A stretch of 51,474 bases of DNA from a phage: the sequence record PZ445410.1; one strand, written 5' to 3'. A program made the position numbers and the translations under genes. Below the pieces are notes generated by a model, which saw only the letters and a list, made by a program, of their open reading frames with translations, did not search any database and had not been told where the DNA came from. Shown one piece after another: positions 12,505-50,388 of this stretch (position 1 is the first letter of the stretch; the number at the start of each line of letters is the position of its first letter).

Positions 12505-12532
12505 TTGCACGTTTAACAAAAAATGCTATCAT
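12505..12532 (+). promoter_or_regulatory. sigma70-type promoter (TTGCAC, 16 nt, TATCAT)
   Basis: Hexamers with 16-nt spacer; spacer contains a reverse-oriented partial TAGCAC-box (TTAACAAAAAATGCTA). Confidence 0.4.
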
Positions 12533-22208: not shown

Positions 22209-25200
22209 ATGGCTGAAAATATGATAACGGGCAGTAAGGGTGGATCATCAAAACCTTATGTGCCGAAAGAGATGGAAGATAACCTGATCTCAATCAACAA
22301 AATCAAAATCCTTCTTGCCGTTTCCGATGGTGAGTGCGATCCAGATTTCACGCTTCGCGATCTGTATCTCGATGATGTTCCGGTAATTGCAGATGATGGA
22401 ACTGTTAACTATCAGGGTGTGAAAGCTGAATTTCGACCCGGAACGCAGACGCAAGATTACATCCAGGGGTTTACTGACACATCAAGCGAAGTGACGCTGG
22501 CGCGTGACATTACGACGACAAATCCTTATGTAATTTCCGTAACCAACAAAACATTATCGGCTATCAGAATCAAAATGCTAATGCCAACAGGCATTAAGCA
22601 AGAGGATAACGGCGATCTTGTCGGCGTTAAGGTTACTTATGCTGTTGATATGGCTGTTGACGGAGACTCTTACAAAGAGGTATTGCTAGACACTATCGAA
22701 GGTAAAACGCGTTCCGGTTACGACAGAAGCCGGAGGATTGACCTTCCGGCATTTAATGATCGCGTATTACTTAGGGTTAGAAGGGTTACGGCAGACAGCA
22801 CATCTTCTCGTGTTACTGATCTGATTAAACTACAAAGTTACGCTGAGGTTATTGATGCAAAATTCCGTTATCCTCTGACTGGTCTTGTTTACGTTGAATT
22901 TGACAGCGAATTGTTCCCAAATCAGATCCCTAACATTTCAATCAAGAAGAAATGGAAGCTGATTAACGTTCCGAGTAACTACGATCCTGTTTTGAGAGAG
23001 TATCACGGTTCATGGGATGGAACATTCAAAAAAGCATGGTCAAATAATCCAGCATGGGTGCTTTATGACATTATCACAAACCAGCGATATGGATTAGATC
23101 AGCGAGAGCTTGGTGTGCAGGTTGACAAATGGAGTCTTTACGAAGCGGCGCAATACTGCGATCAGAAAGTGCCGGACGGAAAAGGCGGCACAGAGCCGCG
23201 TTATCTATGCGACGTTGTGATTCAAAGCCAGATTGAGGCTTATCAGCTTATTCGTGATATTTGCTCAATCTTCAGAGGCATGAGCTTTTGGAATGGAGAG
23301 AGCTTGTCAATCGTCATTGATAAGCCGCGCGATCCGTCGTACATCTTCACAAATGACAATGTTGTTGATGGTGATTTTCAGTACACAACAGCAAGTGAAA
23401 AGAGCATGTACACGCAGTGCAACGTGACGTTCGATGACGAACAAAACATGTATCAACAGGACGTAGAGGGTGTATTCGACACAGAGGCCGCATTGCGATT
23501 TGGATACAATCCTACAAGCATAACCGCGATCGGATGTACACGCAGGAGTGAGGCTAATCGGCGCGGTCGATGGATACTAAAAACCAACTTGCGCAGCACT
23601 ACGGTAAACTTTGCTACTGGACTGGAAGGCATGATCCCATCAATAGGTGATGTGATTGCTATTGCTGACAATTTTCACAGCAGCAACCTTAAATTAAACC
23701 TATCAGGGCGCGTGATGGAAGTTTCCGGCTTGCAGGTGTTCGTTCCGTTTAAGATTGACGCGCGACCAGGTGATTTCATTATCATCAACAAGCCGGACGG
23801 AAAGCCAGTTAAGCGCACAATCTCAAAAGTAAGCGGTGACGGAAAAACCATTGAACTAAACATTGGGTTTGGGTTTGAAGTTAAACCTGACACGGTTTTT
23901 GCAATCGACCGCACTGATATTGCATTGCAGCAATACGTTGTAACGAGTATCGGCAAAGGTGATGATGATGATGAATTTACATACTCCATCACGGCTGTTG
24001 AATATGACCCTAACAAATACGACGAGATTGATTATGGAGTAAACATTGACGACAGGCCAACTTCAATTGTCCAGCCTGACACAATGGCAGCGCCTGAAAA
24101 TGTGCAAATATCCTCATACTCGCGAATTGTCCAGGGTGCAAGCGTTGAGACAATGGTTGTGTCGTGGGATAAAGTACCTTACGCATCGCTGTATGAAATG
24201 CAATGGCGAAAAGGTGATGGCAACTGGCTGAATACACCACAGACCGCAAACAAAGAAATTGAGGTTGAAGGTATTTATTCAGGAAACTACCAGGTAAGGG
24301 TTAGATCTGTTTCCGCTTCAGGTTCTACGTCTCCGTGGTCCAGAATTGTGACAGCATCACTGACTGGTAAGGTAGGAGAGCCAGGCGCGCCAGTTAACTT
24401 AACCGCATCCGACAATGAAGTGTTTGGCATTCGTGTTAAGTGGGGGATGCCAGAAGGGAGCGGAGACACGGCATACATTGAGCTTCATCAGTCGCCGGAT
24501 GGAACGGCTGAAAACTCAAGCCTGCTAACGCTGATCCCGTATCCACAATATGAATACTGGCACGGTACGCTTCCGGCTGGTCATGTTGTATGGTATCGGA
24601 TCAGGAGCGTAGACAGGATCGGCAACGTTTCCGGTTGGACTGATTTTGTTAGAGGTATGGCTTCAGATGATGTGGAGGCTGTTTTAGGAGATATTCTTGA
24701 TAAGATTTTTGATACTGAAGCAGGTCAGGATCTTAAAGAGAACGCCATTGACAGTGCAAACAAGATAAAGGACCAGGCGCAAGCAATCATCCAGAATGCT
24801 CTTGCTAATGATGCTGATATTAAGTGGACGCGAGTACAAAATGGAAAGCGAAAGGCTGAATATGGTCACGCGCTTGAGCTTATCGCCACAGAGACTGAGG
24901 CGCGAGTTACGCAGATTGAAGAATTGAGGGCGTCAATCGACGAGGATATTGTTTCAAGCATAAAGACAGTGCAGGAGGCTATCGCCACAGAATCTGAAAC
25001 GCGAGCAACTCAAATAAATGCTTTGGATTCAAAATTCACAACTGAAATTGACGGTGTAAAACGCGATACAGCCGCAAGCATTAATCAGGTTAATCAAACC
25101 ATTGCCAATGAGTCAGAAGCGCGCGCGCAGGCCGTTAACGCGCTTGATGCGAAGTTCACAAAGGAGATCGAAGATTTAAACGGAGTCATTAAGACTGAGG

Positions 25201-25787
25201 TTGAGGCTAACATCTCTGAAGTGAAACAGGCTATCGCTAACGAGACAGAGGCAAGGGTGCAGGCTGACCAGGCGTTAACAGCTAAGTTTGGAGACGTTGA
25301 ATCTGCATTAGCTCAAAAACTTGATTCGTGGGCTGGCGTTGATTCGGTTGGCGCTAAGTACGCCATGAAATTGGGCCTTACTTACAACGGGCAGAAGTAC
25401 AGCGCAGGAATGGTAATGCAGCTTTCTCAGAGTTCATCCGGCCTTATCTCGCAAATTTTGTTTGATGCGAATAGGTTTGCGATTATGACTAGCTCGACTG
25501 GCGGAGTGTATACGCTGCCTTTCGTTGTTGAAAATAACCAGGTATTCATCAATAGCTTGTTAGTTAAAAACGGATCAATAAACAATGCGATGATCGGTAA
25601 CTTCATCCAATCAAACAATTACGTTTGGAATCAAACAGGATGGAGGTTGGATAAAAACGGCACGTTTGAAAATTATGGTTCTACTCCTGGAGAGGGAGCC
25701 ATGAAAATGACAAACGAAACGATCAGCGTTAGGGATGCAAACGGCGTTTTGCGTGTTCAGATTGGGCGTATCACAGGTTATTGGTAA
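22209..25787 (+). CDS. central tail fibre / host specificity protein (lambda gpJ-like)
   Basis: 1192 aa after M-L-K-I; FN3-like segments; C-terminal tandem ~35-aa repeats. Confidence 0.8.
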   Translation: MAENMITGSKGGSSKPYVPKEMEDNLISINKIKILLAVSDGECDPDFTLRDLYLDDVPVIADDGTVNYQGVKAEFRPGTQTQDYIQGFTDTSSEVTLARDITTTNPYVISVTNKTLSAIRIKMLMPTGIKQEDNGDLVGVKVTYAVDMAVDGDSYKEVLLDTIEGKTRSGYDRSRRIDLPAFNDRVLLRVRRVTADSTSSRVTDLIKLQSYAEVIDAKFRYPLTGLVYVEFDSELFPNQIPNISIKKKWKLINVPSNYDPVLREYHGSWDGTFKKAWSNNPAWVLYDIITNQRYGLDQRELGVQVDKWSLYEAAQYCDQKVPDGKGGTEPRYLCDVVIQSQIEAYQLIRDICSIFRGMSFWNGESLSIVIDKPRDPSYIFTNDNVVDGDFQYTTASEKSMYTQCNVTFDDEQNMYQQDVEGVFDTEAALRFGYNPTSITAIGCTRRSEANRRGRWILKTNLRSTTVNFATGLEGMIPSIGDVIAIADNFHSSNLKLNLSGRVMEVSGLQVFVPFKIDARPGDFIIINKPDGKPVKRTISKVSGDGKTIELNIGFGFEVKPDTVFAIDRTDIALQQYVVTSIGKGDDDDEFTYSITAVEYDPNKYDEIDYGVNIDDRPTSIVQPDTMAAPENVQISSYSRIVQGASVETMVVSWDKVPYASLYEMQWRKGDGNWLNTPQTANKEIEVEGIYSGNYQVRVRSVSASGSTSPWSRIVTASLTGKVGEPGAPVNLTASDNEVFGIRVKWGMPEGSGDTAYIELHQSPDGTAENSSLLTLIPYPQYEYWHGTLPAGHVVWYRIRSVDRIGNVSGWTDFVRGMASDDVEAVLGDILDKIFDTEAGQDLKENAIDSANKIKDQAQAIIQNALANDADIKWTRVQNGKRKAEYGHALELIATETEARVTQIEELRASIDEDIVSSIKTVQEAIATESETRATQINALDSKFTTEIDGVKRDTAASINQVNQTIANESEARAQAVNALDAKFTKEIEDLNGVIKTEVEANISEVKQAIANETEARVQADQALTAKFGDVESALAQKLDSWAGVDSVGAKYAMKLGLTYNGQKYSAGMVMQLSQSSSGLISQILFDANRFAIMTSSTGGVYTLPFVVENNQVFINSLLVKNGSINNAMIGNFIQSNNYVWNQTGWRLDKNGTFENYGSTPGEGAMKMTNETISVRDANGVLRVQIGRITGYW

Positions 25788-25794
25788 AAGCAAA

Positions 25795-25821
25795 GGGAGG
25801 CGCATTGCCTCCCTTTTTTTA
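25795..25821. terminator. bidirectional intrinsic terminator
   Basis: GGGAGGC-GCATT-GCCTCCC flanked by A-run and T-run. Confidence 0.7.
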
Positions 25822-26713
25822 TTAGTCATATTTTGATGCGTCTATAGCAAGTATTGATGAAGAATAATAAACCCCAAGCGGACCAGGCGTTTGAGCAACC
25901 TGCTTTGATATTGAGTAAATATTTGATCCAGATGCGCCGGATTGTGATTCAAATATCATGTGACCGCCAAGTTGAGGATTTGGAACGGAGTTTATTGCCG
26001 TTTGAAATGGCGTTACAGCGCATGTATAACCCAAATAAACATCAAATGTTATTCCGCTAACTGGTATTTGGTGAGCCTCTAAAGGCTTCATTTTTCCGTG
26101 GTATGTCATTTGACCAGCGGAATTATAAAACGCTATTCCGTGACTACCAGGACTTGTTACCATATCGCTAAAAGCGTAAACCCTAATCCATCCAGGGTTG
26201 TCCGTCCTATCAATCCTAAGTGCATGATAACCACCATTATTTATGTGAGAAAAAGCAGTGTATGCACGAGATCCCATTCTCACAAAGAAAAAGCATACAC
26301 GATCAAATGGTATTGATGTTTGATAAATGGAGCCGTTATAAACCCCCATATCACCTCGATTAATTAAATTCACAGGCGTAAAATCAGGACTTAGCCAAAT
26401 TGACCCATCCGGCTTTGTGATCTGCATTCCGTACATGTTACCCCCAAAACGTATATATATATCTTGACTCGCCAGCATTAAGACCAGACCACGAAACAGT
26501 ATTCCCGCTAACGTTTATTGTTGGTGCTCCCCAGTTAACTCCAGCCCACGTCTGCGTTCCAATATATCCAGCCTTTAATGTTTTTCCTGGCGGCTGATTG
26601 TAATATGTCTTGCTTCCTGATGGTTGTGTGAATCTATCCAGGAAGAATACAGGAGTTAATAAACCAGTAACATCCCTTCCTTGTTCGTCGTAAATTGCGT
26701 AACCGTATGCCAT
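25822..26713 (-). pseudogene. frameshift-interrupted gene (fragments 26438..26713 and 25822..26478); function unknown
   Basis: Two ORFs overlap by 41 nt in different frames at a C5/G5 tract (26441-26445); removing one G fuses them into about 299 aa; upstream fragment is coupled (TAATG) to the lipoprotein gene. Confidence 0.4.
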
Positions 26714-26982
26714 TATTTGCACTCCACATAATCAAAATTATCCTCGCTTTGCCACCTGTGAACGAAAGTTACATATTTTTGTGATGGAGCTACGCGATAG
26801 TGTTTTTCACCGAATCTGTTTTCGCGCACAGCGTTTATTTTCACAGGATAGCTATCATTTACAGGGAATGTTTTCACCATGTATGAGCCAACGCAATCAA
26901 CCTCTTTATAGCCCCCATCCATTGACGCAGAACAACCAGTCAGGGCAACGGCGGCAATCAAAACGGCTATTAACTTTTTCAT
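26713..26982 (-). CDS. outer-membrane lipoprotein, Cor/Llp-like superinfection exclusion candidate
   Basis: Signal peptide MKKLIAVLIAAVALTGC with lipobox; 89 aa; just downstream of the J gene on the opposite strand. Confidence 0.5.
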   Translation of the reverse strand: MKKLIAVLIAAVALTGCSASMDGGYKEVDCVGSYMVKTFPVNDSYPVKINAVRENRFGEKHYRVAPSQKYVTFVHRWQSEDNFDYVECK

Positions 26983-27013
26983 TTTGGTGTCTCCTTAGTT
27001 GTTGTTGGTTGCA

Positions 27014-27055
27014 ACTATACACGATCTTGCGGTGGGCGTTTAGCAAAAAGTGCCA
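27014..27055 (-). promoter_or_regulatory. TAGCAC-box variant (TGGCACTTTTTGCTAAACG) with TATAGT
   Basis: Motif at canonical spacing, oriented toward the lipoprotein gene. Confidence 0.4.
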
Positions 27056-41997: not shown

Positions 41998-42213
41998 ATG
42001 AAAGATTTTTTAAACGCTGCAACTTCCGGCACTGGCGGCGCGTCAATCACTGGCGCGGTAACTGGTCAAACAACTATTGCAATAGCCAGCTTCGTTTTGA
42101 TGGCTGCATTTGGTATGTGGGGCGCTTATCTTCGCTGGCGTGATAGTAAGGCGCTACGTGACGCGCTTGAATGCGGTGATATTAAGAAAGCTATTGAGAT
42201 CAGAGGGAAATAA
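41998..42213 (+). CDS. holin (probable pinholin)
   Basis: 71 aa, hydrophobic TMD, charged C-terminus, immediately upstream of SAR endolysin. Confidence 0.6.
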
Positions 42214-42701
42214 TGAGTATAAAACAAAGAGTGACCGCTGCGGCTTTTGGCGTTGCTCTTGCCCTTACTTCTCCGCTACTGGAGGAAATAGAAGGAGTAA
42301 AACATAAGCCGTACAAAGATATTGCTGGGATATGGACGGTTTGCGCCGGAATAACTGGACCTGACGTAATACAAGGCAAAACGTACACACAAAGAGAGTG
42401 CGATGCACTACTGGCAAAGCATATCAAGATCGCAAAGGATGAAGTTGATAAGCGTGTAAAGGTTGACATTCCTGATACAATGCGCGCAGCAATGTATTCA
42501 TTCACATACAATGCTGGAACTGGAGCTTTTAGAAATTCAACCATGCTTAAGCTGATTAATAACGGTCGTTATATGGAAGCGTGCAATCAGTTATGGCGAT
42601 GGACAAAATACACCAATCCAAAAACAGGAAAGAAAGAAACGTCTAAAGGACTGCGCAACCGCCGCGCGGTGGAATTTAAATATTGCATTAAGGATCTGTA
42701 A
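42213..42701 (+). CDS. SAR endolysin (T4-type lysozyme fold)
   Basis: N-terminal Gly/Ala-rich SAR-like segment then [23 protein letters not shown], close to P21 R-type catalytic region as I recall it. Confidence 0.75.
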
Positions 42702-42703
42702 TC

Positions 42704-43102
42704 ATGAGAAAGTTATCAGCAATCGCGATCGCTGTTATTTTGTCTGGATGTTCAAGCGTTACGCCACTGACCGGATTAATCGGTAGTAAGCCGGAAATCA
42801 CAGCACAGGCAGGAGCGGAGAACGTAAAGCAGACCGTTGGCGTTACCGCAAAGCAGGACACCAGCACAAAACAGGAAACTACAATAAAGGAATCTGCGGT
42901 TGATAAGGTGGACACTTCCAGCAAGAAGGATTTCACTACGTCAACCATTCAGGCTAACACCATCAAGGCTGATAAAATCCAGGTTGTGCAGGGTGAGCAA
43001 AGTAAGTGGTACGATCCTATAATCTATTGCGCTGCAATTTTCAGTGGTCTTTTGTCAATGCTTTACTTTTCCTACCGCAAAGGCAACAAAAAGGAGGCTT
43101 AA
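42704..43102 (+). CDS. unimolecular spanin (T1 gp11-type)
   Basis: Lipoprotein signal with lipobox LSGC plus C-terminal TMD; 132 aa; last gene of lysis cassette. Confidence 0.7.
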   Translation: MRKLSAIAIAVILSGCSSVTPLTGLIGSKPEITAQAGAENVKQTVGVTAKQDTSTKQETTIKESAVDKVDTSSKKDFTTSTIQANTIKADKIQVVQGEQSKWYDPIIYCAAIFSGLLSMLYFSYRKGNKKEA

Positions 43103-49657: not shown

Positions 49658-50128
49658 ATGATCGAAGAAAATATTAGCACCATGTCGCGTAGTGAGTTCT
49701 GCGATATGCTTCGCGACCTGGGCGCGGCAATTGGTAGTGGTGAGCGTAATAATGTATTCATGCCAGCGCTTTTTTTGTGCGCTAATGTGGAGAACGGCGA
49801 AGCAATTACGGCATCGTACATGCGCCAGGTTGTCAACCGCGTACCTGAAGTAAAGCAAAAAGGCGTGATCAGCATTAAGCGAAAGGTGACTGATGAGGGT
49901 GATGGCTTTGTGTTTGCGCTCACTGAAGCCAAAAGCAAACCTCGTGTTCTGACTGGGGATGATATAGCGAAACTTGAAATCAAGTGGCGAGCAAAGTTTA
50001 TTGCTCAACTACTGAAAACACAGCCGCGAATCAGTGATCTGGAAGGTGAGCGCCTGGAGGGTGCGGCAATCGCACTTGAGCGAATGAATGAAATGCTCAA
50101 CGAGATGGTAAAGGTGGGGGATGAATAA
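49658..50128 (+). CDS. hypothetical early protein (157 aa)
   Basis: AAAAGGAG RBS before internal ATG of track ORF. Confidence 0.5.
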   Translation: MIEENISTMSRSEFCDMLRDLGAAIGSGERNNVFMPALFLCANVENGEAITASYMRQVVNRVPEVKQKGVISIKRKVTDEGDGFVFALTEAKSKPRVLTGDDIAKLEIKWRAKFIAQLLKTQPRISDLEGERLEGAAIALERMNEMLNEMVKVGDE

Positions 50129-50388
50129 TGAATAAGGCATTAATTGGAGTTTTGATTGCAATTGCTACCCTGACCGGATGCGAAAAGGCATCTGAATCAA
50201 CGGTAGTCGTAGGCGTGGAGTCAGATTTTAAAGTCGGTCGCCTGTTTACTGTTGATGGATGCACTGCGTACCGATTCTATGACAACGGTCGGGCAATCTA
50301 TTACACCAATTGTAAGGGCGCAACGGATAGCACATACCGCAGCGGCAAAAACGTAATGCACCAACAAGTCACAACAGATATGAAATAG
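50128..50388 (+). CDS. lipoprotein (86 aa), early-expressed
   Basis: Signal peptide MNKALIGVLIAIATLTGC with lipobox. Confidence 0.55.
   Translation: MNKALIGVLIAIATLTGCEKASESTVVVGVESDFKVGRLFTVDGCTAYRFYDNGRAIYYTNCKGATDSTYRSGKNVMHQQVTTDMK

Follow-up and report, generated by a model that had tools for sequence, protein, structure and literature searches.

A candidate BtuB-directed superinfection-exclusion lipoprotein in the receptor-binding locus of a T1-like Hanrivervirus coliphage

Sequence record PZ445410.1, a 51,474-nucleotide phage DNA referred to here as the window, encodes an 89-residue lipoprotein precursor on its minus strand at coordinates 26713–26982, within a receptor-binding protein (RBP) locus near the gene for the J-like central tail fibre. 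We propose, with a probability of roughly 0.7, that this gene codes for a cognate superinfection-exclusion lipoprotein directed at BtuB, acting from the periplasmic side and resembling Cor and Llp in its action, by analogy, while forming a sequence family of its own. Like FhuA, BtuB is a TonB-dependent transporter; it imports vitamin B12 and is used as a receptor by many phages and by the E-type colicins. The strongest evidence is that the mature part of the lipoprotein has been exchanged along with the RBP genes, relative to a FhuA-using phage of the same genus, with one boundary at the lipobox cysteine codon. BtuB binding and an exclusion phenotype would be predicted from this genomic context.

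A lipoprotein gene exchanged together with the receptor-binding genes

The precursor is specified by an ATG-initiated open reading frame (ORF) with a strong ribosome-binding site (RBS; AAGGAG, 26991–26996, minus strand) positioned 8 nt upstream of the start codon. Its N-terminus is MKKLIAVLIAAVALTGC/SASMDGGYKEVDC, with the residues SAS following the lipid-modified cysteine, and the protein ends in VECK. Residues 1–16 form the signal peptide (26935–26982, minus strand), the Cys17 codon occupies 26932–26934, and the remaining 72 residues constitute the mature domain (26716–26931). The lipobox (MKKLIAVLIAAVALTG/C, ending in LTG/C) fits the pattern [LVI][ASTVI][GAS]C, and Pfam LPAM_1 scores 21.2 bits, above its gathering threshold of 20. 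The sequence-only reading of this DNA had described an 89-residue protein with a signal peptide and lipobox, encoded on the strand opposite to J, and both descriptions hold; the J-like central tail fibre or tail tip gene (22209–25787; Pfam Phage_Tail_Tip and FNIII-A_GpJ) lies on the plus strand. By the +2 rule, the residue after the lipid-modified cysteine decides transfer to the outer membrane, and since that residue is Ser and not Asp, the lipoprotein is predicted to be exported, lipidated, and sorted to the outer membrane. An AF2 model of the lipoprotein has five beta strands, with a mean pLDDT of 77.4 over the whole chain and 78–90 across the mature-domain blocks.

The lipoprotein gene is the first, promoter-proximal member of what is, judging from the gene junctions, a translationally coupled minus-strand operon of three genes that converges on J. 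Its stop codon overlaps the ATG of a gene for a 91-residue accessory protein (TAATG; 26438–26713, minus strand; phrog_557, N15 gp22-like), and 1 nt past the stop codon of the latter begins the gene for a 204-residue RBP (25822–26436, minus strand; phrog_425, N15 gp23-like), a protein thought to attach to the J-like tail fibre. Both assignments draw on homology with phage FritzSarasin. The lipoprotein gene had been placed right after, or directly downstream of, J; this needs correcting, since the 204- and 91-residue protein genes intervene.

RBP loci downstream of gpJ have been described as carrying an ‘RBP plus cognate superinfection exclusion protein’ (PMC8594841, PMC9586334), and several comparisons indicate which receptor is served here. 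The locus region shares 99.8% identity with Escherichia phage phiE31-2 (Drexlerviridae, Tempevirinae, Hanrivervirus), and the window is assigned on this similarity to a T1-like Hanrivervirus coliphage. FritzSarasin (Bas04), for which BtuB dependence has been shown experimentally (Maffei et al. 2021, BASEL), has these three genes in identical order, and the lipoprotein, the 91-residue protein (bas04_0024), and the 204-residue protein (bas04_0023) are 56%, 73%, and 66% identical, respectively, to those of the window; a preprint takes >30% identity as the criterion for a single RBP family. Two further Hanriverviruses have listed receptors (BASEL supplementary table), with KarlJaspers (Bas06, MZ501090) having BtuB as its terminal receptor and JakobBernoulli (Bas07) using FhuA, and Bas06 serves as an example of a BtuB RBP (bioRxiv 10.64898/2026.04.02.716166). 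The gp31 and gp32 proteins of T1, which uses FhuA, are barely similar to the 204- and 91-residue pair. The locus is thus directly downstream of a gpJ homologue and includes an RBP homologous to that of a BtuB-dependent phage. On sequence grounds the 204-residue protein is a bona fide RBP of a BtuB-type locus, and the phage itself presumably depends on BtuB. Because the locus is of the BtuB type, the receptor of interest is BtuB rather than FhuA, and a negative outcome with FhuA-dependent phages, which is probable, would leave the mechanism unrefuted. Several unannotated ‘Campylobacter jejuni’ phage records (MG0656xx) are 96% identical over the locus, and probably represent mislabelled or contaminant genomes.

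The comparison with JakobBernoulli is the most informative. This phage has the T1 arrangement, in which J is followed by two plus-strand genes and a minus-strand cor. In a blastn alignment with the window, identity is 84–88% through J to coordinate 25817, and after a gap the similarity resumes at 26932, the last base of the lipobox cysteine codon, and continues from there at 93.6%. JakobBernoulli cor and the window lipoprotein gene have the promoter region, RBS, and signal-peptide codons in common, whereas the mature domains are unrelated (the N-terminus of the JakobBernoulli protein, a true Cor, is MKKLIAVLIATVTLTGC/ANMPKRECTAIYE). The exchanged cassette, as defined by blastn and pairwise alignment, corresponds to 25818–26931 and comprises the RBP and accessory genes plus the mature lipoprotein domain, which is therefore both encoded next to the RBP genes and exchanged with them. 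Because the cassette boundary falls at the lipobox cysteine, we interpret the lipoprotein as the functional counterpart of Cor, with a specificity that travels with the RBP genes.

By tblastn the lipoprotein gene is present in 82 phage records, and 81 records contain RBPs that are 60% or more identical. The two genes are on the same strand and about 280 bp apart in all five phages checked (tonijn, atuna, BEK2-2, mar001J1, and SECphi27), and the order lipoprotein, 91-residue protein, 204-residue protein was called in FritzSarasin and in six metagenomic contigs. Homologues of 47–98% identity share 27 invariant residues in a 17-sequence alignment, Cys30 and Cys88 among them, and the motifs VKTFP-N, AVRENRF, and RWQ are conserved; invariant motifs over this range of identities, together with the 82 records, show the ORF to be a conserved gene and not a chance one. 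Cys30 and Cys88 are mature positions 14 and 72 of 73 and are also kept in all of the distant homologues retrieved. The lipobox is kept in nearly all of 30 aligned family members, with two distant ones having LNGC and LFGC.

A hidden Markov model (HMM) of a wider mature-domain profile was searched against 1.84 billion representatives, in a library without protein names. It returned only 18 matches, mostly lipoproteins of 87–108 residues along with a small number of long repeat proteins that match over short segments, and no recognisable Cor or Llp is present among these 18. The lipoproteins share the pattern DC..Y..TF...V.I..R.DRFG...F.G.WQ..F...C, and some relatives in Providencia phages adjoin J. 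By this measure the lipoproteins are a small sequence family of their own.

Relationship to Cor and Llp, and the evidence weighed

The sequence-only reading had called the lipoprotein Cor/Llp-like and proposed a search with profiles of those families. The occupation of the cor slot, the promoter, RBS, and signal peptide of cor, and the exchange of the mature domain with the RBP genes all support the functional idea well; once the signal peptide is taken away, the homology is marginal. The full-length lipoprotein matches PHROG 1119 (‘Cor superinfection exclusion protein’), which holds both T1 Cor and T5 Llp, with 44.1 bits (E=4.3e-11), and this match, together with the position in the cor slot behind a cor promoter and signal peptide, would fit a canonical, FhuA-blocking Cor like those of T1, phi80, and N15. 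We consider that very improbable. Most of the PHROG score derives from the signal peptide, and the u-spanin encoded in the window (42704–43102, plus strand) scores 25 bits (E=3.8e-5) on PHROG 1119 through its signal peptide alone. Profile searches label the lipoprotein ‘Cor’ because its signal peptide is shared with a true cor, and because the u-spanin signal peptide scores by itself, ‘Cor’ labels derived from PHROG 1119 need to be checked against the mature domain. BLASTP with T1 Cor gives a convincing alignment across the signal peptide only. The adjacent RBP genes are moreover of the BtuB and not the FhuA type, and it is the FhuA-using sister phage JakobBernoulli, with its different mature domain, that has the true Cor.

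Comparisons of the mature domain argue further against a canonical Cor, and several of them, together with the genetic observations that follow, also weigh against our own proposal. The mature part alone scores 15.8 bits on PHROG 1119 (E=0.028), colinear over the whole domain. NCBIfam NF047972, which defines Cor, gives the whole protein 19.5 bits (E=7.4e-4) against a cut-off of 31 and a score of 55.8 for T1 Cor, and because it falls short of this curated definition the lipoprotein is not filed as a member of the Cor family. Alignment of the wider mature profile to Cor by hhalign yields a probability of 3% (E=0.014 local, 0.0026 global), with both cysteines and a C-terminal SExNF motif paired, and in the HMM comparison with the Cor family 4 of 2000 shuffles score as high; the narrow mature family gives 1.2% and a single 15-column local match. 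For T5 Llp the wider profile reaches a marginal E=2.7e-4 and 42% probability by hhalign, a score attained by none of 60 shuffles, while 38 of 2000 shuffles attain the HMM score. The BtuB exclusion lipoprotein of phage TrudiRoth is not significantly similar (hhalign E=0.029, with 2/60 shuffles as good; HMM p~0.01). We also found no experiment on this lipoprotein family in the literature.

The second group of points on this side is genetic. The lipoprotein gene is co-transcribed and translationally coupled with structural RBP genes, unlike the situation in T1, Bas07, and T5, and this would be unexpected if a strict early versus late timing matters. In phage BubbaBully an RBP that matches the window's almost perfectly from end to end is paired with a lipoprotein of only 47% identity, whose signal peptide and upstream region are different; within the BtuB class the modules therefore reassort, and the lipoprotein is loosely tied to any particular RBP allele. 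These features suit a different cassette-linked role in the envelope rather than a block to adsorption: the lipoprotein could prepare BtuB or the envelope for the phage's own DNA to enter or leave, protect against colicins, or have the modulation of B12 uptake as its main task. The lack of significant homology to any of the exclusion proteins compared would also agree with such a role. We nonetheless regard it as unlikely. An exported lipoprotein cannot join virion assembly in the cytoplasm, a position that matches cor exactly, signal peptide included, speaks for a task of the same kind, and exclusion lipoproteins are present at every such locus that has been characterised (FhuA/Cor, FhuA/Llp, LptD/Rtp45, and BtuB/BF23).

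A profile search of all Protein Data Bank (PDB) sequences returned no Llp or other relevant match, Foldseek found nothing in the PDB below E=0.3, and Rtp45 is not among the top 50–60 PDB fold matches listed. Fold matches in BFVD include phage lipoproteins and a weak one to a ‘receptor-blocking protein’ of Yersinia phage phiR2-01 (E=0.031, TM 0.46). The predicted small beta-barrel would be compatible with the Llp fold, although non-specifically. Cys30 and Cys88 are placed so as to tie together the ends of the mature domain, as are Cys11 and Cys58 in Llp, and by analogy they probably form a disulfide. In size, lipid anchor, and cysteine pair the lipoprotein is built like Cor and Llp, with at most a faint signal at the sequence level.

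An o-spanin-like or other lysis function might be suggested by weak matches to PHROG Rz-like spanins (E=0.036–0.097), but these matches are confined to the signal peptide and the lysis cassette is elsewhere in the window, with an endolysin (42213–42701) followed by the T1-type u-spanin mentioned above (phrog_1804, E=2.9e-49). A non-functional ORF is at odds with the invariant motifs of the family and with the presence of an RBS and a promoter. Both readings were rejected, and we consider them effectively refuted by the separate lysis cassette and the family conservation.

Promoter and neighbouring features

A TAGCAC-type promoter-like box had been reported for the lipoprotein gene. The exact TAGCAC hexamer was not found upstream of the gene; a one-base variant is present in the correct register within a box, TGGCACTTTTTGCTAAACG (27037–27055, minus strand), that matches a recurrent 19-mer, TAGCACTTTTTGTTAAAAC, at 15 of 19 positions. 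The box is followed after a canonical 17-nt spacer by a -10 hexamer, read from the sequence as TATAGT (27014–27019, minus strand), which is 31 nt upstream of the ATG. The general form of the claim therefore stands. In JakobBernoulli the exact hexamer (as ATAGCAC) is present at the same position upstream of cor.

The 19-mer has 16 sites in the window with no more than four mismatches, each followed after 17–18 nt by a TATAAT-like hexamer, whereas about 0.13 sites of such quality would be expected by chance per window (our own estimate, assuming uniform composition). Eight are on the plus strand (364, 1349, 3996, 36592, 39110, 40151, 50386, and 50849) and eight on the minus strand (12528, 16289, 27055, 43413, 45581, 46257, 48124, and 49001). 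The downstream hexamers are TATAAT, CATAAT, or TATATT, and nearly all of the sites precede non-structural genes. This class looks like the phage's own set of promoters for host RNA polymerase, and membership of the class would suggest early expression of the lipoprotein. A generic sigma-70 scan called no promoter upstream of the lipoprotein gene, as is explained by a promoter class that lacks a canonical -35 element. Hairpins of variable sequence are frequent in the spacer, and many of the boxes begin right at or after a stop codon. The copies at 12528 and 16289 run antisense into the structural gene block.

Between J and the convergent lipoprotein/RBP operon there is a G+C-rich hairpin, AAAGGGAGGCGCATTGCCTCCCTTT (25792–25816), which is a probable bidirectional terminator. 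Within J itself, DNA homology is broken at 25010–25227 (approximately residues 934–1006 of the protein) relative to all three of FritzSarasin, JakobBernoulli, and BubbaBully. The break is ~220 bp long, or ~260 bp against FritzSarasin, and the segment is coiled-coil-like and repeat-rich and lies immediately ahead of the Phage_Tail_Tip domain. A variable linker is one possibility, a part in the specificity of RBP docking another.

The phrog_557 and phrog_425 pair is also found in the short-tailed Stx phages, e.g. 933W (NC_000924, 2268–3118), directly 3′ of the tail fibre gene. The 933W counterpart is 43% identical to the 204-residue RBP, and the pair is followed by lom, without a lipoprotein. 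The same RBP-like pair (25822–26713 in the window) would thus serve very different types of virion. In the BubbaBully record (OR896831) the intact minus-strand gene for the 204-residue RBP at 1290–1940 is unannotated, and two small plus-strand ‘hypothetical’ ORFs are deposited there instead.

The window encodes a second lipoprotein of 86 residues (50128–50388, plus strand; MNKALIGVLIAIATLTGC/EKA), as the sequence-only reading had noted, with a genuine signal peptide and lipobox. It has weak matches to DUF4884 and phrog_6360, and relatives in Pseudomonas, Xanthomonas, and Erwinia phages. A role as a receptor-specific exclusion factor was rejected, as the protein is 97.7% identical in the FhuA-using JakobBernoulli; it follows the phage backbone and not the receptor, and so is a poor candidate.

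Proposed action and comparison with known exclusion systems

We suggest that host RNA polymerase would transcribe the lipoprotein gene from the early-type phage promoter, and that the precursor would be exported, lipidated at Cys17, cleaved, and delivered by the Lol system, on account of Ser at +2, to the inner leaflet of the outer membrane. The 72-residue mature beta-barrel, probably clamped by a Cys30–Cys88 disulfide, would then bind the periplasmic face of BtuB, by analogy with Llp and Rtp45, and lock the transporter in a state to which the 204-residue RBP cannot bind (as for Llp with FhuA and Rtp45 with LptD). Infected cells and their debris would as a consequence stop adsorbing both this phage and other BtuB-dependent phages.

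A broader evolutionary interpretation is offered more tentatively, and we would not yet favour it over its negation. The lipoproteins could represent a third receptor-blocking sequence family in addition to Cor and Llp, either as a very deep branch of one superfamily or as an independent invention, which silences BtuB from the periplasmic side. The promoter and signal peptide of cor might then act as a fixed ‘socket’ in T1-like phages, with recombination behind J and at the lipobox codon swapping the mature exclusion domain and the RBP genes as one unit. If true, this model would account for the continued match between receptor specificity and self-exclusion when the genes move horizontally.

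The concept, and the presence of such systems at this type of locus, are already in the literature, including a 2026 paper in which the same inference was drawn for a Cor-like protein in a BtuB-using Tempevirinae phage of the BASEL collection (PMC13164509), and the gain here is incremental. What is added is that the lipoprotein is not a Cor by curated criteria, that it has its place in a separate small family, and that a natural cassette junction lies at the lipobox codon. Confirmation would provide a defined 72-residue periplasmic ligand that switches BtuB off and would extend exclusion by ‘reverse allostery’, a mechanism already characterised structurally, from FhuA to a second TonB-dependent transporter. 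The findings bear on the prediction of cross-exclusion among therapeutic phages that share BtuB, on the engineering of receptor-swap cassettes, for which the lipobox-codon junction marks a natural swap site, and on annotation, in that automated ‘Cor’ labels for this family rest mostly on the signal peptide.

Among the characterised systems, the LptD-directed Rtp45 (SE_Oeko) is also encoded beside an RBP gene in a gpJ-downstream locus, and in the same group of small siphoviruses. Cryo-EM places this exclusion lipoprotein on the periplasmic side of LptD, where it acts by steric displacement (10.1101/2025.07.07.663478). It differs from the window lipoprotein in its smaller size (~6 kDa) and in that its receptor is not a TonB-dependent transporter. 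T5 Llp, for which a FhuA-bound structure is available (PDB 8A60), is likewise encoded beside an RBP gene, has a small beta-rich fold with a disulfide that ties its termini, and targets a TonB-dependent transporter, as we presume for the window lipoprotein. Llp binds FhuA at its periplasmic face, allosterically refolds the extracellular loops, and has a Cys11–Cys58 disulfide; the same strategy has been predicted for other TonB-dependent transporters, and such exclusion lipoproteins are expected to be common (PMC9586334). The two systems differ in that Llp acts on FhuA, llp is divergent from oad, and the sequence signal is below any accepted threshold for homology.

A BtuB target is also presumed for the receptor-blocking lipoproteins of T5-like phages (BF23 Llp, TrudiRoth bas30_0205, and phiR2-01), and for BF23 a BtuB ‘receptor blocking lipoprotein’ is cited (Mondigler 2006, as cited in PMC10644984). 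These proteins resemble that of the window in size (with a precursor of 88 residues), lipobox, and two-cysteine layout. They differ in having no significant sequence similarity to it, as judged by the TrudiRoth comparison, and this points to the window lipoprotein being either an independent or a very diverged family.

The closest parallel is with Cor (T1 gp30, and its counterparts in phi80, N15, and HK022), which is also a small minus-strand outer-membrane lipoprotein ending a J-downstream receptor locus. In Hanrivervirus the promoter, RBS, and signal peptide of cor are literally the same DNA up to the lipobox cysteine codon, and both proteins have one cysteine soon after the lipidated one and another 2–4 residues from the C-terminus, within an ‘SExNF...C’ motif. 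In contrast, the mature domain of the window lipoprotein is 14 residues longer than that of Cor, with no homology detectable by BLASTP, and it is tied to RBP genes of the BtuB and not the FhuA type. The gene orientations differ correspondingly, in that cor converges on its RBP genes whereas the window lipoprotein gene is co-directional and translationally coupled with them.

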